Part shown: piece by piece, positions 4,751 through 21,899 of the stretch | Layout: every line of letters begins with the position of its first letter | Numbering within the stretch: position 1 is the first letter of the stretch | Source of the DNA: Clostridia bacterium | Lineage (GTDB): Bacteria > Bacillota > Clostridia > TANB77 > UBA1234 | NCBI GenBank assembly: GCA_017521465.1 | Contig: JAFXCN010000016.1 | Span: 1 to 26,970 of the forward strand | Direction of reading: 5' to 3' | Length of the DNA: 26,970 nucleotides | The notes under the pieces: generated by a model | The model's input: the letters and a program-made list of their open reading frames with translations, nothing else | The model's database searches: none | Told to the model about the DNA's origin: nothing | Position numbers and translations under genes: made by a program

Positions 4751-4879
4751 AAATTAATAGTGAAAAGTTAAAAGTGAATAGTTAAAAGTACAGACTTGCT
4801 TTTAAATTTCTACCCTTAAATTAGCAAGTTACTCTTCACTATTCACTCTTATCTCTTCGCTCTTGCGAAGCAAGTCTGG
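4751..4879. repeat. Copy B of the ~130-bp tRNA-Gln-associated structured repeat
   Basis: See copy A (1804-1931). It ends in the same ...cttgcgaagcaagtctgg junction, but here it is joined to a degenerate tRNA-Gln 3' end. Confidence 0.8.
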
Positions 4880-4998
4880 CTGGGCTGGGAGGATTAGATC
4901 CGCCTCGTAACGCAACAGTCCACTGGACTGTTGCTTGTTCGTTAATCTTCGCCTCTGGCTCGCTTAACTCACACTCGTTTTCGAATCCTCCCATCCCA
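4877..4998 (-). pseudogene. tRNA-Gln-derived element: a degenerate 3' end plus an inverted 3'-end fragment, closing a ~120-nt stem-loop
   Basis: 4877-4904 (tggctgggctgggaggattagatccgcc) differs at only 3-4 positions from the 3' end of the intact tRNA-Gln(UUG) (5044-5071). 4979-4998 (tttcgaatcctcccatccca) is the same motif inverted. The two arms give a ~14-bp closing stem. Internal hairpins are gcaacagtcc-act-ggactgttgc and gttaa...ttaac. No cloverleaf or anticodon loop can be drawn. Confidence 0.6.
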
Positions 4999-5000
4999 TG

Positions 5001-5036
5001 CGAAAACAAAAATCCCACATCTTACGATGTGAGATT
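5001..5036 (-). terminator. Rho-independent terminator of the tRNA-His/tRNA-Gln operon
   Basis: 11-bp stem aatcccacatc / gatgtgagatt with loop ttac. On the minus strand it is followed by TTTGTTTTCG. The single non-Watson-Crick position is G:U on the minus strand and A:C on the plus strand, which supports minus-strand function. Confidence 0.8.
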
Positions 5037-5043
5037 TCCGTTT

Positions 5044-10542: not shown

Positions 10543-10594
10543 GCTAAGATTATTATCAAAGCTATCAGCTTTTGTGTAAAATCTTAGCTTTTTT
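10543..10594 (+). terminator. Terminator-like nested hairpin (SDR gene terminator and/or leader attenuator)
   Basis: Outer 9-bp stem gctaagatt / aatcttagc encloses the inner hairpin aaagct-atc-agcttt. It is followed by TTTTTT and sits between the candidate promoter and the next start codon. Confidence 0.6.
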
Positions 10595-10619
10595 GACAAC
10601 AGAAAGGATGGTTTTCCAA

Positions 10620-11099
10620 ATGCGGCAAGAACTTCAGAACATCTTTTCACTTAACTATGACCCTACTGCATTTGATGACAAAGAAAAAGAAGTTAGACGT
10701 CTGCTCAACTTGGTGAAAGAGTGTTCTTCGGAAAAAGAACTGGTTAATTTTGCTACTGAAACAAAGTTTGACATTCGTGTACGTGTAGCTGCTGCAGAAA
10801 AGGTTAAAACTTTTTCGCACCTAGAGCATCTGCTGTGGCAAGCTTTTATCCAGTCTTCACTTGCCAACTGTACGGTAACGGTAATTGCAGCCAAAAAACT
10901 CAATGTGAATGACATGAAAAATCATGCGCTGCGTCCCGTGCTAATGACGGTAAATCTCTATGGTTTTCATGATCTCATCGAGGAAGCGATTCCTCTGGTA
11001 AGTGATGTGAATCTGCTGGAGGAATTCATTAACCTTGCCAAAAGGTTTTCACCAAAACTGGAACAGCTTGCATATGAGCGAGCTATGGAACTTCTGTAA
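10620..11099 (+). CDS. Hypothetical helical protein (160 aa), possibly HEAT-like repeats
   Basis: The ORF has clearly higher G+C than its neighbours. The track start at 10572 lies inside the hairpin, so ATG 10620 (or 10608) is more plausible. The segment DIRVRVAAAEKV is HEAT/PBS-lyase-like. Confidence 0.7.
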   Translation: MRQELQNIFSLNYDPTAFDDKEKEVRRLLNLVKECSSEKELVNFATETKFDIRVRVAAAEKVKTFSHLEHLLWQAFIQSSLANCTVTVIAAKKLNVNDMKNHALRPVLMTVNLYGFHDLIEEAIPLVSDVNLLEEFINLAKRFSPKLEQLAYERAMELL

Positions 11100-15758: not shown

Positions 15759-15781
15759 CCACTTAAAAGGTGGTGATAATT

Positions 15782-16045
15782 TTGAAGATATCACATTGCT
15801 ACCTTTGCTTATTTCTAATAACTTTTTTAGTTCCACTCATTTTGAACTCTATATTATCTTTTCAAGCAATTTTAAATTTATTCTTTTATTTTGTAATAAT
15901 TCATTTCGTTGTTTCATGTTATATTGTTTATTCATTGTTTGAGATTAATATTATGCACGAAAAGCAGGGCTCAAAACTTATTCTAAGCAAAGGTAAGATT
16001 TTGTCTGATAGGAGTGATTACGATTATAAATTCCAAACTCATTAG
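15782..16045 (+). CDS. Small two-TM membrane protein (about 87 aa), first gene of the operon
   Basis: AAAGGTGG lies 8 nt upstream of TTG 15782; the track start is GTG 15770. It has two long hydrophobic helices. It overlaps the next ORF by 32 nt in another frame. Confidence 0.6.
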   Translation: MKISHCYLCLFLITFLVPLILNSILSFQAILNLFFYFVIIHFVVSCYIVYSLFEINIMHEKQGSKLILSKGKILSDRSDYDYKFQTH

Positions 16046-17687
16046 TTCAAAATATTTTTTTATGCTTACTTTTATGATTTGCGGGGTAGTTTTTAACTAT
16101 TTATTATTTTTAAAACTATTCACCAAACACTCGATAAGCTTTATCCTCCTTGGCAACACATTTGACATTAATTCTTCTCTCTGGGAAGTTATAGCAATTG
16201 TTTATTTCCTAAGTGTTATTATTTCATACTTTTCAATTTCATATACTCTTTCAAAACATCTATTTAAAAACTTTTCTCCCTCAACTCCTGCCCAACATTA
16301 CGAAAACAGCAAAGCACATTTATTTATAGGTACTGATATAGAAAGTGATACACCGATTATTATTCCAGAAAAAGGACTTTATCAAAATATTCTTATAACC
16401 GGAACAATAGGTACTGGAAAAACATCTTCTGCCATGTATCCTTTTACAAAACAACTCCTCGAAAAAAATATTGGAATGTTAATATTAGATGTAAAAGGAA
16501 ACTTTCACACTAAAGTCCTCGAGTTTACCAAACTGCTAAATAAAAAAGTAACTGTTATTGAATTGAATGGTAAATATACTTATAACCCACTAGACAAACC
16601 AAATTTAAAACCTGCTATACTTGCCAATCGACTCAAAACAATTCTTACTTTGTTTTCAAACAAAAACACCTCAGATTCATATTGGCTTGATAAAGTTGAG
16701 TCGTATATCTCAGAATGCATCAAGCTGTGTAGGTTATACAACGACAAATATGTAACTTTTCTTGAACTTCACAAATTAATTAATTCTCCTTCATATCTTG
16801 AAGAAAAAATTTCCTATGTTAAAAACTTATTTTTAAGCGGTAGGTTATCTGATTCTGAAGTTTTCGATTTCAGCACTTGCATAGATTTTTTTAGAAATGA
16901 GTATGCTCATCTTGATTCAAAAGTTCTATCTATAATTCAATCTGAAATTACAAGAATAACTCAAATCTTTGTTAACGACCTCGATGTATCAAACACTTTT
17001 TGCCCTCCTAAAGATAAAAATACTTTTGAAGGTTTTCATAATTTGAAAGATGATATTGTTGTCTTAAATATGAATGTAGCAGAATATCGCAATCTTGCAA
17101 AAATTATAGCAAGCTATTTAAAACTTGATTTTCAATCTGAAGTATTAATGCGTTTATCTAAAAACACTCAGACACCAGTAGCATTTATATGTGATGAATA
17201 TCACGAATATGCAACAGAAAATGATGCAGATTTCTTTTCCCAAAGCAGAGAAGCTAAATGTATAAATATTGTTTCTACCCAAAGCTATACTTCTCTTCTA
17301 AATTGTATGAATAATCAGAATGCTGCAAAAGTTATTATACAAAGTTTAGTAAATAAAATTTGGTTTAGGACTGACGATATGTTTACTATTGAAGAAGCTC
17401 AAAAACAATTAGGCAAAGAAGATAAAACCAAAATTAACAGAAGTATTTCTGAAAACGCAAAAGAAACAAAATACAATTATCTTTTAAAAACTTTTAAATC
17501 TGACGGTTCAAATTTATCTGAAAGTATTAGTACAAATGTATACCACGATTACATTTATGATTTCAATACGTTTTCTAGAGATTTAAAAACTTTTCACGCA
17601 ATTTGCTTTATATCTACTGGCTTTGAAATTTTAAAACCTAAAGTAGTAAAACTATCCCCTATAAGCTCAATACATAAATTAATTTAA
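16014..17687 (+). CDS. Type IV coupling protein-like ATPase (VirD4/TraG/TraD family), membrane anchored
   Basis: The N-terminus has two to three TM helices. Walker A is ILITGTIGTGKTSS (about 16399-16430). Walker B and the TraG-D_C-like block are VAFICDEYHEYA...FFSQSREAKCINIVSTQSYTSL (about 17181-17290). The only start in the open frame is GTG 16014, so the start is uncertain. Confidence 0.8.
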   Translation: MITIINSKLISSKYFFMLTFMICGVVFNYLLFLKLFTKHSISFILLGNTFDINSSLWEVIAIVYFLSVIISYFSISYTLSKHLFKNFSPSTPAQHYENSKAHLFIGTDIESDTPIIIPEKGLYQNILITGTIGTGKTSSAMYPFTKQLLEKNIGMLILDVKGNFHTKVLEFTKLLNKKVTVIELNGKYTYNPLDKPNLKPAILANRLKTILTLFSNKNTSDSYWLDKVESYISECIKLCRLYNDKYVTFLELHKLINSPSYLEEKISYVKNLFLSGRLSDSEVFDFSTCIDFFRNEYAHLDSKVLSIIQSEITRITQIFVNDLDVSNTFCPPKDKNTFEGFHNLKDDIVVLNMNVAEYRNLAKIIASYLKLDFQSEVLMRLSKNTQTPVAFICDEYHEYATENDADFFSQSREAKCINIVSTQSYTSLLNCMNNQNAAKVIIQSLVNKIWFRTDDMFTIEEAQKQLGKEDKTKINRSISENAKETKYNYLLKTFKSDGSNLSESISTNVYHDYIYDFNTFSRDLKTFHAICFISTGFEILKPKVVKLSPISSIHKLI

Positions 17688-17692
17688 TAATT

Positions 17693-17793
17693 ATGGAAGT
17701 TCTATTAATGTGGTCCTTTTTTGTTTTTTCTATTAGCCCCCTTATCCGAAAAACATCATCCCCATTTTTGGGCCACATTAATAGAGCTTCCAT
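17693..17793. repeat. Near-perfect 23-bp inverted repeat separated by ~54 nt, in the gap between the ATPase and pilin-like genes
   Basis: atggaagttctattaatgtggtcc (17693-17716) pairs with ggccacattaatagagcttccat (17771-17793). There is one mismatch and one bulge. Confidence 0.8.
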
Positions 17794-17810
17794 ATAAGAA
17801 AGGATTTATT

Positions 17811-18125
17811 ATGAAAAAAACATTGATTTTAATTTTATTATTTCTATTTTTACTCACAAGCGTATCTTATTGCGCTTCAGATCCTAAACTTATAAAAACT
17901 ATAAATAGTGGCCTAACTAAGATAAAAGATTGGATTATAAAACTTTCGACTCCTGCAGCTGCAGTAGCCATTGGAACTGGAATTCTTATGAAAAAGTTTA
18001 GTTTCGGCGATGAAGATAGGATCGTTGCTGGTAAAAGATTAATTAAAAGCACAATATTTTCTTATGCTTTTATACTTTGCGTAGATTTAGTATTAAGCAC
18101 AATTCAAACATTAGCAAAAGGATAG
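17811..18125 (+). CDS. Secreted or membrane small protein with VirB2/TrbC pilin-like topology (tentative)
   Basis: ATG 17811 with AAAGGA upstream. The signal peptide is MKKTLILILLFLFLLTSVSYCA/SD. Two hydrophobic helices (PAAAVAIGTGILM and STIFSYAFILCVDLVLSTI) are separated by a basic loop. Confidence 0.75.
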   Translation: MKKTLILILLFLFLLTSVSYCASDPKLIKTINSGLTKIKDWIIKLSTPAAAVAIGTGILMKKFSFGDEDRIVAGKRLIKSTIFSYAFILCVDLVLSTIQTLAKG

Positions 18126-18134
18126 TGATTTTAT

Positions 18135-19019
18135 ATGGAACCTGTTTCAGAAGAAATTATAAATGAAATAGATATTGGTTCAGTAATTGTTGATACCATA
18201 AATTCTCTTTGTCACTCACTCTTTTCTTCTATAGACAATGCAATATATCCAATTTTAGATGACATCGTTTTTATTTCTCCAGATATAACAGAAACTAATT
18301 ATTTAGAAAGAATTTTTGGTACAAATTCAAACACAGGACTTCTTATTCTTGCAAATTCTCTCATCCTAGCATTTATATTGTATTATTCCGTACGAAGATT
18401 TATTTCATTCTATGCAGGAAATGAAGTTGAATCACCATATATATTTTTGATAAAAGGAATATTTATAACTATATTAATGAATTTTTCGTTAGAACTTTGT
18501 AGTACGCTAATTTCTTTTACTTATGAAATCACAAATTTTATCACTGCACTCGGCCAAAATATTTTTAGCAAAGAAGTCTCTTTCGCGTCTTTAATAAATA
18601 TTTTAAATTCATCTTTCGCATCAGACTTCAATGTATTTTCGTTAGATGGTGTATTAAGCGGAATGCTTTCTGTTTCATCATTCTCTTTAATAATTAGTTT
18701 TGCTCTTCGATATATAATGATTAAAGTTTTAGTTCTTTCCGCTCCTTTTGCTTTTTTGTGTCTTCTTAACAAAAGCACAACCGGATTCTTTAAAAGTTGG
18801 TATAGAAGTTTGCTTTCGCTTTTACTGGTCCAAATATTAATTGCACTAATTTTACTTTTGCCTTATGCAATTATCAAAGATTCTTCTTCAGAAATATTAA
18901 ATAAAATTTTAATTATTGGTGCTATAAACGCACTGCTAAAGTCAGGACAATTTATCAAAGAATTTATGAGTGGTATTGGCATAAGTAGTAATTTTCAAAG
19001 TCGGAGTTTCTGGTCTTAA
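18135..19019 (+). CDS. Polytopic membrane protein, VirB6/TrbL-like (tentative)
   Basis: It has 5-6 TM helices. The central block FALRYIMIKVLVLSAPFAFLCLL....GFFKSWYRSLLSLLLVQILIALIL resembles the TrbL/VirB6 core. It starts 9 nt after the previous stop. Confidence 0.75.
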   Translation: MEPVSEEIINEIDIGSVIVDTINSLCHSLFSSIDNAIYPILDDIVFISPDITETNYLERIFGTNSNTGLLILANSLILAFILYYSVRRFISFYAGNEVESPYIFLIKGIFITILMNFSLELCSTLISFTYEITNFITALGQNIFSKEVSFASLINILNSSFASDFNVFSLDGVLSGMLSVSSFSLIISFALRYIMIKVLVLSAPFAFLCLLNKSTTGFFKSWYRSLLSLLLVQILIALILLLPYAIIKDSSSEILNKILIIGAINALLKSGQFIKEFMSGIGISSNFQSRSFWS

Positions 19020-19040
19020 ATCAATTTTCTCGAGGTGATT

Positions 19041-19340
19041 ATGTTTAAATTTATATTTCCTTTAAATTACAAATATCCCGAAAAGCTATTAGGTATTATT
19101 GAATATAGAATTCTACTCCCCTTATGCTGCTATGCTGGACTACTCTTTTTGATTTTACATAATTTGAGTTTTGCTTTTTTTACTTCAGCAAGCATTTTCA
19201 TAATTTTGTTCTTTCCAATCTTTTTACTATCGATTAATAATATTAATGGTGAGCCAATTTACTCGTTTATTTTTGCTTTTATTTGCTTTCATTTAAATTC
19301 AAAAGTTTATTTGTTTAAAAATGATTGCAAAATTATCTAA
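19041..19340 (+). CDS. Two-TM small protein, PrgI/TcpE (VirB3-like) pattern (tentative)
   Basis: ATG 19041 with GAGG 5 nt upstream. YKYPEKLLGIIEYRILLPL, then a TM, a second TM and NINGEPIYSFIFAFICFHLNSKVY match the layout of PrgI-family conjugation proteins. Confidence 0.7.
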   Translation: MFKFIFPLNYKYPEKLLGIIEYRILLPLCCYAGLLFLILHNLSFAFFTSASIFIILFFPIFLLSINNINGEPIYSFIFAFICFHLNSKVYLFKNDCKII

Positions 19341-19374
19341 AAAACGATATTATTGGTACACGGGGTGAGTAAGA

Positions 19375-20343
19375 ATGAATTTTGAGCAAAATCTATCAAT
19401 GCTTTTTTCAGATTTAAATGTACCAGAAGTATTCATAACAGAGCATTTCTGTATGGCAAACGGTGACTATATAAAAGTATATATTTATTGCATGTTTTTA
19501 TGTAAATATAATAGTGAAATTTCTCCATTAGATCTTTCTAAGAAATTATGTTTGCCATTAAAAACTGTTGAACTTGCCCTTAAATATTGGGAAGAACAAG
19601 ACATTATAATAAAAAAGCAAAATACATACATATTATCTGATTTAAAGAAGCTTGAAGTGGATAAATTATATAAACCAAAAGTAACCTCTTCTTTAGAAGA
19701 TGCTTTAGATACAAATTCAAAAAATGTTCTTAGAACTCAAGCCATAAACGAAATCAATTCTGTATTTTTCCAAGGAGTAATGTCTCCTACATGGTATACA
19801 GATATAGATACACTATTTGTTAAATATCAATTTGATGAAGATGTTATGATTTCTTTATTCCGTTATTGTTTTGACAGACAAGCTCTTCATAAAAAATATC
19901 TTTTCACTGTAGCTGAAGCTTGGCATTCAAACAACATTAAAAACATGAACGATTTAGAAAAATATTATCTTCAATACGAAAAATCAAATCAAATGAAAAA
20001 AACTATCTGTAAAAAACTGGGGATTACAAGAAAACTTTCTCAATACGAAGAAGCCTATGTAGACAGATGGACTATTGATTATAATTATCCGATTGATATT
20101 ATAGAACTTGCTCTTAAGAAAACCACATCAAAAGCTAATCCAAGCTTTGATTATATCGATAAAATAATCACTGATTGGCACGAAAAGAAATTAGTAACAG
20201 CTGATGAAATTCAAGCTTATTCAAAAGAGCAAAAAGAAAAATATAAAACAGTTAAAGAAGTAGCAAAAACAATTACTCCCAAATATACAGATGGAGAAAC
20301 AAATCAATATAATGATTTAAGTAAATTTTATGCAAATATATAG
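19375..20343 (+). CDS. DnaD/DnaB_2-domain replication initiation and membrane-attachment protein (Bacillus DnaB/DnaD type)
   Basis: The N-terminal winged-helix segment is GDYIKVYIYC...SPLDLSKKL.LPLKTVELALKYWEEQ.II. Two DnaB_2-type repeats follow: SPTWYTDIDTLFVKYQFDEDVMISLFRYC...YLFTVAEAWHSNNIKNMNDLE and EAYVDRW..DYNYPIDIIELALKK......PSFDYIDKIITDWHEKKL. Confidence 0.85.
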   Translation: MNFEQNLSMLFSDLNVPEVFITEHFCMANGDYIKVYIYCMFLCKYNSEISPLDLSKKLCLPLKTVELALKYWEEQDIIIKKQNTYILSDLKKLEVDKLYKPKVTSSLEDALDTNSKNVLRTQAINEINSVFFQGVMSPTWYTDIDTLFVKYQFDEDVMISLFRYCFDRQALHKKYLFTVAEAWHSNNIKNMNDLEKYYLQYEKSNQMKKTICKKLGITRKLSQYEEAYVDRWTIDYNYPIDIIELALKKTTSKANPSFDYIDKIITDWHEKKLVTADEIQAYSKEQKEKYKTVKEVAKTITPKYTDGETNQYNDLSKFYANI

Positions 20344-20357
20344 AAAGGATTTTAAGT

Positions 20358-21344
20358 ATGCAGTCTGATGTTTTTAAAACAATCGAACGAAATTTTGAAT
20401 ACAAAAGAAACACTGCTATAAAAGATGCAAATGCATTAAAAGAAGAAACATATGAAAAATTTCCAAGATTAAAAGAGATTGATAATTTAATATTCAAATG
20501 TGGCCTTCAAGCTTCTAAAGCTACAATTGCCAACGCATCAGACAAAGACACAATTCTTTCTGAATTAGAAGAAAAAATGTCTGACCTAAAAAAAGAACGA
20601 GATGAAATATTAATCAAAAACAACATTTCGTTAGATCCAAAGTTTGAATGTACTAAATGTAATGATTCGGGATATGAATTATTATCAAACGGAACAAAAA
20701 TGTGTACTTGTTTCAAACAAGAATTAATTAATGAAGCATATAATAAATCTAATTTATATAGACTTCAAGAAGATACTTTTTCTTCGTTTGATTCTGCACT
20801 ATTCTCAGACGAAGTTAATACACAAAAATATGATGCAAGTATCTCGCCAAAGCAAAACATCGAACGAATAAAAAACATTTGTGAAGAATTCATTTCAAAC
20901 TTTGATAATCCATCTCAAAAAAATTTATTATTCACAGGAACACCTGGAATTGGCAAAACATTTTTATCAGGATGCATTGCAAACGAATTATTAAACAAAG
21001 GATACACTGTTTTATATCAAACAGCACCAGTTTTATTAGATCGTATTTTTGAATATAAATATAACAACAAAGAAACATCAAAAGAATTATATGACAATTT
21101 ATTTAATGTAAATTTATTAATTATTGACGATTTAGGCACAGAAAATCTTACATCAGCCAAATTCTCTGAACTATTCACAATAATTAATTCAAGATTATTA
21201 AATCCACAAACGAAAACAATAATATCAACAAATCTATCACTAGAAAACCTTGCAAAAAACTATGATGACAGAATATTATCTAGATTAATAGGAAACTTCA
21301 ATATATGCAAATTTTTTGGAGAGGATCTGAGATTAAAAAGATAA
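20358..21344 (+). CDS. DnaI/DnaC-type helicase loader ATPase with an N-terminal Cys-rich (zinc) module
   Basis: C.KCNDSGYE.......CTCF, then Walker A LLFTGTPGIGKTFL, Walker B LLIIDDLGTE, sensor STNL and the C-terminal ILSRL. Confidence 0.9.
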   Translation: MQSDVFKTIERNFEYKRNTAIKDANALKEETYEKFPRLKEIDNLIFKCGLQASKATIANASDKDTILSELEEKMSDLKKERDEILIKNNISLDPKFECTKCNDSGYELLSNGTKMCTCFKQELINEAYNKSNLYRLQEDTFSSFDSALFSDEVNTQKYDASISPKQNIERIKNICEEFISNFDNPSQKNLLFTGTPGIGKTFLSGCIANELLNKGYTVLYQTAPVLLDRIFEYKYNNKETSKELYDNLFNVNLLIIDDLGTENLTSAKFSELFTIINSRLLNPQTKTIISTNLSLENLAKNYDDRILSRLIGNFNICKFFGEDLRLKR

Positions 21345-21376
21345 AAAAGCAGGTGTTTTGACACCTGCTTTTTTAT
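21345..21376 (+). terminator. Rho-independent terminator ending the seven-gene operon
   Basis: Stem agcaggtg / cacctgct with a 6-nt loop, followed by TTTTTTAT, directly after the stop codon. Confidence 0.85.
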
Positions 21377-21379
21377 TTC

Positions 21380-21560
21380 TGATACTTCCGTGCGTATCGA
21401 AGCTTCCGAAGGAAACAATTCCGCTGACGGAAAAAGGCGAATCGCCACCCGCGTAGCGGCCGTCTGCGGAAACGAACTGCATTACAGCAATTTGCTATGA
21501 TGCTCACGCATTCAGTCTACGAACCAATCGCACTTCCTTTTTACATGCGACCGATTCGTG
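21380..21560. other. G+C-rich non-coding segment with several short GC hairpins; candidate structured RNA or foreign DNA remnant
   Basis: My hand count gives about 65% G+C for 21421-21480, against about 27% in the adjacent dnaI-like gene. Local stems: ttccg-ctga-cggaa, ggcg-aat-cgcc, ccgc-gta-gcgg, and gcattacagca-att-tgctatgatgc. No ORF has an RBS on either strand. Confidence 0.5.
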
Positions 21561-21568
21561 TCCACATC

Positions 21569-21597
21569 TTTACAAAACTCCCATTTTGTGGTATTAT
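21569..21597 (+). promoter_or_regulatory. Extended -10 promoter of the 59-codon ORF
   Basis: TTTACA - 17 nt (ending TGg) - TATTAT. Confidence 0.6.
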
Positions 21598-21685
21598 GTA
21601 AATGTATAGTTTTGTTTATACATTTTTCCTCGTTTCTCACCCGACTCTCTCAATCTTCAACTTACTTTAAGGAGGAACAAACACT

Positions 21686-21865
21686 ATGGCTAAGAAGAAT
21701 CGGAAGAAAAGTCTCCCTACCGGCGCGAAGGAAAGCACTGAAGGACGCGTGAACCGCATCAACAATACCCGAAAGTGCTGTACGTTGGTGCACCAGCCCA
21801 AAAAGGGGTGCGGATACCGCCGGAGGGACAAGTACCCCCATCGCTCGTGGGAGGGAGCGTACTGA
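21686..21865 (+). CDS. Small (59 aa) highly basic Cys/His-containing protein, G+C-rich gene; not in the supplied ORF track
   Basis: ATG 21686 is preceded by TAAGGAGG 8 nt upstream. Hand translation: MAKKNRKKSLPTGAKESTEGRVNRINNTRKCCTLVHQPKKGCGYRRRDKYPHRSWEGAY, stop TGA 21863-21865. It has a promoter upstream and a GC-rich terminator 5 nt downstream. Of the 8 Arg codons, 7 are CGN and none is AGA. Confidence 0.7.
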   Translation: MAKKNRKKSLPTGAKESTEGRVNRINNTRKCCTLVHQPKKGCGYRRRDKYPHRSWEGAY

Positions 21866-21870
21866 TTCGG

Positions 21871-21899
21871 GCACCCCGGTGAGGGGTGCTTTTGTTTTA
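21871..21899 (+). terminator. Rho-independent terminator of the small ORF, overlapping the gyrA stop codon
   Basis: Stem gcacccc / ggggtgc with loop ggtga, followed by TTTTGTTTTAT. Confidence 0.85.

Follow-up and report, generated by a model that had tools for sequence, protein, structure and literature searches.

Why should a short G+C-rich islet lie between dnaI and gyrA in an A+T-rich gut Clostridia genome, and does it encode a functional gene? The sequence examined here, referred to as the window, comprises positions 1 to 26,970 of contig JAFXCN010000016.1 (assembly GCA_017521465.1). Within it the islet occupies 21377-21896; the dnaI terminator (21341-21376) borders it on the left and the gyrA stop codon (21897-21899, - strand) on the right. 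It carries a 59-codon open reading frame (ORF) on the + strand (21686-21865 with its TGA; MAKKNRKKSLPTGAKESTEGRVNRINNTRKCCTLVHQPKKGCGYRRRDKYPHRSWEGAY), which belongs to a family of small basic proteins as a divergent member and appears ArfA-like in its C-terminal half.

The small gene and its expression unit

A first-pass annotation of the window, made from the letters alone, had singled out the islet by hand counts of its composition and by codon usage unlike that of the host, and both observations are borne out. G+C content is 0.650 at 21421-21480, 0.618 at 21721-21890 and 0.489 over 21377-21899, as against 0.270 in dnaI and 0.327 in gyrA. Sliding 180-nt windows across all 26,970 nt have a mean G+C of 0.308 (standard deviation 0.061), and the maximum, 0.617, starts at 21711, within the small ORF and above the tRNA clusters. 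G+C content at third codon positions (GC3) is 0.73 in the small ORF versus 0.15-0.38 across 23 host ORFs (about 0.17 in host genes), and an index resembling the codon adaptation index (CAI-like), trained on the genes of the window, assigns it 0.25 versus a host range of 0.46-0.77. Its arginine codons read CGG, CGC, CGC, CGA, CGC, CGG, AGG and CGC, so that 7 of 8 are CGN and none is AGA. The small ORF is compositionally alien to its host.

No public assembly with this exact sequence contains a gene call for the ORF, which explains the empty result of a word-indexed protein search. The window ORF alone had no match in Pfam, in NCBIfam or in a word search of 5.8 billion clusters. It took a full HMMER scan, against 1.84 billion representative proteins, to retrieve a first homologue, P0001 (60 aa), over its full length at 58% identity (E 6e-11), and a profile search added three further homologue clusters. 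The homologous alleles lie on short, low-coverage contigs from gut metagenomes (L014-L018). L014 and L016 start with the 3' end of dnaI, and L015-L018 end with the 3' end of gyrA, at 93-97% DNA identity to the window; L016, the sole homologue contig that spans both genes, has the unit between dnaI and gyrA.

The first-pass annotation had named loss of the frame in relatives as one finding that would speak against its reading. We looked at the frame in five diverged alleles and found it conserved, together with the ATG and the TGA, and the indels within the ORF measure 3 or 6 nt and are all in frame. The ORF is 58-60 codons long. Comparisons among the relatives give a ratio of nonsynonymous to synonymous substitutions (dN/dS) of 0.09-0.30; those with the window copy give 0.43-0.63, the window allele being the most diverged, chiefly at residues 17-36. 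Invariant positions fall in two segments, MxKKNxKK..P.G.KE..E.R..R and PKKG..Y.R..K..HRS.EGAY. Judged by these substitution patterns, the ORF is a real coding gene and its small protein is under purifying selection. An assembly chimera was ruled out, since seven contigs from six assemblies (samples) carry the islet at 100% identity; these strains are 99.6-100% identical to the window overall, so the identity of the islet is uninformative on constraint. We are highly confident that the finding is real and that the ORF is a genuine, overlooked and lineage-restricted gene. Its omission by gene callers in this species illustrates how small, compositionally odd genes escape annotation. For the L016 allele a public gene call does exist (P0005, L016 293-583), 96 aa long, with an upstream start and with TGA read as Trp (a code-4 model); under table 11 the same allele reads MSKKNQKK...EGAYR and has 59 aa.

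The ORF had also been credited with a complete expression unit whose promoter and 5' untranslated region are host-like. Each element of the unit was located in the sequence, and the promoter and 5' untranslated region are furthermore conserved among alleles. A sigma-70-type promoter (21569-21597, + strand) consists of a -35 TTTACA, a 17-nt spacer and an extended -10 TGgTATTAT; its motif, CTTTACAAA...TTTTGTGGTATTATGTAAAT, is kept in L014, L016 and L018. The predicted 5' end of the transcript (21600-21631, + strand) contains a stem-loop, AAATGTATA/TATACATTT (21600-21625), that is kept in L014 and L016, followed by TTCCTC (21626-21631), which is complementary to the ribosome-binding site and is kept in all four alleles that include the region. 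In the minimum-free-energy folds of L014 and L016, TTCCTC is paired with GGAGGAA; those of the window and L018 do not contain this pairing. From this arrangement we infer a possible regulatory role for TTCCTC and the 5' stem-loop. The Shine-Dalgarno (SD) sequence AGGAGG (21670-21675, + strand) stands 10 nt before the ATG at 21686 and is conserved in 6 of 6 alleles. An intrinsic terminator, GGGCACCCC-GGTGA-GGGGTGC with a T-run (21869-21899, + strand; hairpin 21869-21891), closes the unit, and its T-run overlaps the gyrA stop codon on the opposite strand. The terminator is conserved among alleles, with one compensatory pair, C-G to U-A, in L017.

Resemblance of the small protein to ArfA

The residue counts of the first-pass annotation are exact: the 59-codon product has 17 Lys and Arg, three Cys (positions 31, 32, 42) and two His (positions 36, 52). 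On their basis it had speculated about a basic, metal-binding protein that binds nucleic acids. A small Cys/His metal-binding protein of the zinc-knuckle type would account for the pattern CC-x3-H-x5-C-x9-H in the window allele, but the homologues have R, F/K and G in place of Cys31, Cys32 and Cys42, His36 is replaced by E or V, His52 is the only invariant His, and no zinc-finger family was matched. Such a protein is scarcely credible here. The metal site thus falls, while the direction towards a basic nucleic-acid-binding protein was right, with rRNA, in the ribosomal mRNA channel, as the indicated target. AlphaFold2 predicts for the window allele a single helix (18-31) at low confidence (predicted local distance difference test score 59), in keeping with folding on the ribosome.

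Searches with the family members suggest a resemblance to a ribosome rescue factor. For 4 of 5 members the top match among 24,736 Pfam families is ArfA (PF03889), at E 1.6e-4 to 2.6e-3 and 17.6-21.5 bits; the match pairs protein residues 31-51 with positions 23-43 of the 44-position model. The segment RFRPR(I/V)VEPKKGGAYKRxxKH aligns to E. coli ArfA, whose sequence was confirmed against PDB 5H5U. Ten reversed or shuffled family decoys yielded no ArfA match at E <= 10. A hidden Markov model (HMM) of the family gave 93 real ArfAs higher scores than any of 20,000 shuffled ArfAs (up to 16.8 vs 9.9 bits). Against the ArfA profile the relatives outscore controls of matched composition. An hhalign comparison paired residues 30-53 with residues 23-47 of E. 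coli ArfA at a probability of 38%, over 24 columns and with a single E. coli sequence on the ArfA side. No alternative family was matched in NCBIfam, PHROGs or PDB. The tail expected of an ArfA is found in the relatives as PKKGGAYKRxxKH and in the window as PKKGCGYRRRDKYPH, where K and H are split by YP; some enterobacterial ArfAs, such as ...YQRKEKYPVRGDREASG and ...YSRKGKYSSRSNWEASG, resemble the window tail ...YRRRDKYPHRSWEGAY.

The structural map of ArfA would give these segments a meaning. In ArfA, residues 15-24 are helical, RF2 is recruited through beta-augmentation by F25 together with the strand Q27-E30, the basic loop after the strand fills the empty mRNA entry channel, and a K-H motif, common to ArfA and BrfA, binds a pocket in that channel (PMC8012679, PMC6881298). 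The family presents its elements in the order seen in E. coli ArfA: a short helix, an F-R-x-R-V/I strand and a KKG-x-G-x-Y-x-R-x-x-K-H tail. As in ArfA, the strand would add a beta-strand to RF2 and the tail would plug the empty 30S mRNA entry channel. The product, a small, very basic and largely unstructured protein, would thereby serve in the release-factor-dependent rescue of ribosomes stalled at the 3' end of truncated mRNA. Its gene is a resident, lineage-restricted unit of Candidatus Fimenecus, gut Clostridia of about 30% G+C. The mRNA, made from a strong vegetative promoter, would be short, with a stem-loop at its 5' end, a ribosome-binding site of good quality, an ORF of 58-60 codons and a terminator. 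We give even chances to a clostridial ArfA-like rescue factor of this kind, with a tail that senses the empty mRNA channel. From sequence likeness we infer ribosome binding, release-factor recruitment and any regulation by the small protein.

Known ArfA (also called YhdL; PDB 5H5U, 5MDV, 5MGP, 5U4I) shares further traits with the family. Both proteins are small (55-72 aa), basic and intrinsically unstructured, and the string [helix]-F-R-x-R-V/I-E-x-KKG-x-G-x-Y-x-R-x-x-K-H aligns to ArfA residues 23-45. The ORF ends at about the point where the active, truncated E. coli ArfA ends (...WEGAY vs ...NWEASG), and in both cases the coding region finishes at a terminator hairpin.

Several observations weigh against an ArfA-like rescue factor. 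The ArfA match lies below the gathering threshold of PF03889 (25.5 bits), covers about 21 Lys/Arg-rich residues and leaves the family outside formal PF03889 membership. The window allele has no Pfam match at E <= 10 and no BLASTP alignment to ArfA, and the family profile did not retrieve ArfA from PDB at E <= 10. The N-terminal 30 residues are unrelated to ArfA. The reverse test with an enterobacterial ArfA HMM was weaker, ranking L014 3rd, L018 11th and L017 16th of 20,005; that HMM, built from 108 sequences of low diversity, adds little to the Pfam result. No prfB, ssrA or smpB occurs within the 174 kb of this genome that were examined. The host belongs to the Clostridia, outside the beta- and gamma-proteobacterial range reported for ArfA (PMC11633108, PMC6881298), and the G+C content of the gene, extreme for its host, is left unaccounted for by the ArfA model alone.

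The control of translation also differs. Both arfA and brfA are translated from non-stop mRNA, which arises because the ORF contains an RNase III site or a terminator, and are repressed by transfer-messenger RNA (tmRNA) (PMC6881298). The small gene lacks this hallmark: an in-frame TGA precedes the terminator stem by 3-6 nt in 6 of 6 alleles, and no long RNase III-type duplex is predicted inside the ORF.

The window allele itself departs from its relatives in the part that would contact RF2. Where the relatives have RFRPR(V/I)(E/V), aligned to LFRQRVE of ArfA, the window allele reads CCTLVHQ. It keeps the tail (KKGCGYRRRDKYPH) and has lost the FRxRV strand, so that release-factor recruitment may be altered or weakened.

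A real, lineage-specific small basic protein with another role, be it ribosome-associated, nucleic-acid-binding, or a spore or stress protein, is possible, and the resemblance to ArfA would then be convergence or a low-complexity coincidence; we take this possibility seriously and do not favour it. The gene is real while its ArfA match is short, basic-rich and sub-threshold; the FRxRV strand is missing from the window allele, a non-stop arrangement is missing from the gene, and the conserved MAKKNxKK..P.G.KE (N-terminal) and HRSxEGAY (C-terminal) segments have no counterpart among the conserved parts of ArfA. Coincidence would nevertheless have had to put ArfA at the head of the Pfam families for four members independently, with decoys of the same composition giving no match, to reproduce the order of helix, F, strand, KKG loop and KH that fits the functional map of ArfA, and to leave no other family in the four collections searched.

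An ArfA-like factor may also be compared with rescue factors outside the Proteobacteria. BrfA (YqkK) of the Bacillus subtilis group (PMC6881298) is likewise from a Gram-positive, lineage-restricted, small and basic, has a K-H motif in its C-terminal tail, and has a terminator that abuts or overlaps the 3' end of its ORF. In contrast to the small gene, in which the stop comes first, the brfA terminator lies inside the ORF, upstream of the stop (PMC6881298). No sequence similarity to BrfA, a protein with two N-terminal helices and Arg25, was detected; the family profile drew only designed helical repeats among PDB chains at E <= 10, the BrfA sequence itself not being hand-aligned. Francisella ArfT, like SmpB and ArfB with their C-terminal tails, follows the same general principle as the proposed factor, in that an empty mRNA channel is sensed by a positively charged tail (PMC8012679). 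They differ in having no sequence relationship to it, and moreover ArfB has a GGQ domain of its own and SmpB works with tmRNA.

Most Bacillota are without ArfB, and the reported range of ArfA and BrfA is limited to Proteobacteria and some ten species of Bacillus (PMC11633108). Rescue factors of this kind have narrow, lineage-specific distributions, and undiscovered ones are expected (PMC8012679, PMC6881298). ArfA, ArfT and BrfA are each known from one narrow lineage. A clostridial ArfA-like factor, if true, would add to the family's range a gut lineage that is abundant and uncultured. As a natural variant it could be used to tell the essential parts of ArfA from the dispensable ones, and it would bear on whether ArfA-type factors share a deeper common origin or emerged repeatedly.

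The conserved TGA is itself unusual. The stop codons of 31 genes (window and L019) are TAA in 22, TAG in 9 and TGA in none. The LtaS-like gene of L022 (18554-20401, on the same 125-kb contig) ends in TGA, with a TAA three codons later, which brings TGA stops to about 1 in 36 genes (window genes, L019 1-10000, L022 12361-20401); no gene looked at contains an in-frame TGA. In the more distant relatives L004-L007, TGA closes 8 of 28 long ORFs. The idea that TGA is unassigned, and the mRNA of the small gene effectively non-stop, is weakened by the LtaS-like gene ending in TGA and by the absence of in-frame TGA. TGA is apparently a rare but functional stop in this genome. Its conservation in the small gene stands out, as does that of an invariant SD-like GGGAGGGAG just before it. 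This motif is contained in an element, CGCTC-GTGGGAGG-GAGCG (21842-21859, + strand), which can be read as a short hairpin or as the SD-like sequence, ends 4 nt before the TGA at 21863 and shows no synonymous variation in any allele. The stretch 21842-21865 reads CGCTCGnGGGAGGGAGC(G/A)TAC and then TGA, with the SD-like GGGAGGGAG ending 7 nt upstream of the TGA. An SD-like sequence before UGA superficially recalls the prfB frameshift site, although the small gene lacks a slippery codon.

RF2, the presumed partner of an ArfA-like factor, is the only release factor that reads UGA. A further reading would make the small gene a true ArfA homologue with rewired control, the first outside the Proteobacteria and the Bacillus BrfA group. 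The host-rare UGA, preceded by the invariant SD-like sequence and with the terminator hairpin directly after it, would make output depend on how much RF2 is available or on ribosomes stalling where the mRNA ends, and G+C-rich, host-rare codons would be selected at the mRNA level and kept for mRNA stability, RNase resistance or slow decoding. We consider this combination rather unlikely.

Origin of the islet and persistence of its composition

The closest relative of the window DnaI (95% identity) comes from a metagenome-assembled genome named Candidatus Fimenecus sp., Clostridia. In the next relatives dnaI and gyrA are still adjacent, and the gap between them is short, A+T-rich and without similarity to the islet: it measures 131 nt in L002 (DnaI 78% identical; gyrA 86% identical at the DNA level) and about 165 nt in L004 and L005. 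The small ORF has no tblastn match in L002-L007. The left edge of the islet is a perfect 16-bp palindrome with flanking A- and T-runs (21341-21376), a predicted bidirectional terminator that closes dnaI; L002 has an analogous but non-homologous hairpin at this place. As the first-pass annotation had suspected, the islet counts as an addition when set against the nearest relatives without it, and by these gap comparisons it was added within the Fimenecus lineage. The adjacency of dnaI and gyrA is conserved in distant relatives too, so the locus is chromosomal. On the dnaI side, at 15770-21344, 'dnaD' (DnaB_2 domain) and 'dnaI' (IstB/DnaC-like) are preceded by a gene for a TraG/TrwB-like coupling protein, and the far side of gyrA holds a Tad-like pilus set (TraC-like, DUF87/AAA_10, ParA/CpaE-like, T2SSE/CpaF-like and two membrane proteins).

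Was the islet then acquired recently from a donor of higher G+C, the first of the two alternatives proposed in the first-pass annotation? A transferred cassette or mobile-element remnant that is carried passively would explain why GC3 (0.73 vs 0.17) and the CAI-like index depart from host values, why the next relatives lack the islet, why the modules around the gene are permuted or inverted between strains, and why contigs often break at the islet. The time scale argues otherwise. The same locus is found in several Fimenecus-type species, whose gyrA tails differ from that of the window by a dS of 0.35-0.40 (dN about 0.01), and all alleles of the small gene nevertheless have a GC3 of 0.60-0.77. 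By a rough calculation, with a host equilibrium GC3 of 0.17 and no fitted model, neutral decay in each lineage over the gyrA distance should strip about half of the G+C excess. The ancestral GC3 would thus have had to exceed 1, which is impossible and makes a recent transfer unlikely. When G+C to A+T changes are polarised by singleton sites, the window allele acts as the outgroup.

Other evidence also speaks against passive carriage. The promoter and 5' untranslated region are host-like and conserved, and the protein is under purifying selection. Searches for donor-like sequence in plasmids, phages, IMG/VR and JGI metagenomes (blastn, tblastn and pattern scans, with the single sequence and with the family alignment) found no match in DNA or protein, and the sole match among the 1.84 billion representative proteins comes from the same lineage. 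The hallmarks of a mobile cassette, such as a miniature inverted-repeat element or an integron, are absent: there are no terminal inverted repeats and no recombinase, and the window holds no second copy. The islet edges share only a 12-nt direct repeat at 83% identity (TGCTTTTTTATT at 21366-21377, TGCTTTTGTTTT at 21887-21898) and a weak TTTTATT match. We regard a recent, passive transfer as improbable, and 'acquired recently' finds no support. As to the broken contigs, L001 ends within dnaI, L010 ends 104 nt past dnaI (corresponding to 21448 in the window) and L009 ends 84 nt into gyrA. Such breaks in independent assemblies hint at strain heterogeneity or repeated modules at the locus.

The contrast between 45-58% protein identity in the small ORF and 93-97% DNA identity in gyrA had raised the idea of hypermutation or a hypervariable locus. 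This was discarded, as dS is already 0.35-0.40 in gyrA and is 0.45-0.9 in the ORF; on these distances the small ORF is simply a fast-evolving small protein. Some force keeps its synonymous sites G+C-rich. Candidates are mRNA stability or RNase resistance, slow decoding via host-rare codons, and biased gene conversion. A gene of GC3 about 0.7 that is kept across species amid genes of about 0.17 is a puzzle of genome evolution in its own right.

Hairpin modules around the gene and other stretches of the genome

Could the RNA, and not the protein, be the functional product, with the ORF incidental? Constraint at the RNA level had been the second alternative of the first-pass annotation. In A+T-rich genomes an island of high G+C is usually an RNA gene, no synonymous site varies in the segment CGCTCGnGGGAGGGAGC, and a 194-nt stretch (21377-21570) that holds a G+C-rich hairpin module, block A, folds better than shuffled sequences (z -3.1 on the + strand, -2.75 on the - strand). 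On the other hand, folding of the ORF region is no better than that of shuffles (z -0.57), and the substitutions are of the coding type, with in-frame indels and dN/dS well below 1. Rfam 15 gave no relevant match for the islet at E <= 10 or for L014-L018 at E <= 1, only terminator-like noise. The consensus structure of block A contains 2 pairs with changes on both sides, in a comparison of 5 similar sequences, and this minimal covariation does not help the case. A structured RNA as the product is thus very improbable, and block A was likewise dropped as a conserved structured RNA, the sequences being too few and too similar for 2 covarying pairs to carry it.

Block A (21402-21507, + strand) is homologous to sequence in L014, L015, L016 and L018. 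It opens with a GCTTCC-GAA-GGAA hairpin of degenerate form, continues with two small hairpins enclosed by the long stem CCGCTGACGG...CCGTCTGCGG, and is completed by AACTGCATTACAGCAATTTGCTATGAT. In the window it lies upstream of the promoter, and in the same four contigs it lies downstream of the ORF terminator, indicating that the module order is permuted in the window. A second module, the small hairpin ATCGCAC-TTCCTTTTTACA-TGCGAC (21528-21550), would be mobile or part of a mosaic: L017 has an identical inverted copy of its 23 nt at 406-428, and part of it also occurs upstream in L014. The remaining spacers differ between alleles and carry other G+C-rich palindromes. Some of these (L014 130-280; L015 385-500; window 21537-21565) share a TTTTTAC(G/A)T(C/G)G... 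motif, as in CGTCGGCCACA...TGTGGCCGACG of L015, and look like a family of short intergenic hairpin repeats. The region around the small gene thus appears to be a mosaic of small intergenic hairpin modules.

The permutation has a possible consequence for transcription. In L015, L016 and L018 gyrA has a private terminator, which is lost in the window arrangement; read-through from gyrA would there run antisense to the small gene. In L014 (745-951), eno stands in place of gyrA after the small gene and block A, suggesting either that the small-gene unit is linked to the dnaI side or that the locus is rearranged in that contig.

Other stretches of the same genome deserve a brief description. The ORF at 10572-11099 (G+C 0.40, GC3 0.38) has the lowest host CAI-like value, 0.46, and no Pfam match, and may be another foreign or fast-evolving gene. 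A G+C-rich non-coding stretch on the - strand (4811-5040, especially 4878-4905) lies just downstream of tRNA-Gln(ttg) and matches no Rfam family. It ends in ...ggcggatctaatcctcccagcccagcca, a near-copy of the tRNA-Gln 3' end (ggcggttcgaatcctcccagcccagcca), and so resembles the duplicated attachment site that an integrative element leaves behind. Finally, in L022 a leader of about 300 nt (20440-20740) with a terminator-like hairpin precedes the threonyl-tRNA synthetase gene and is probably a T-box leader.

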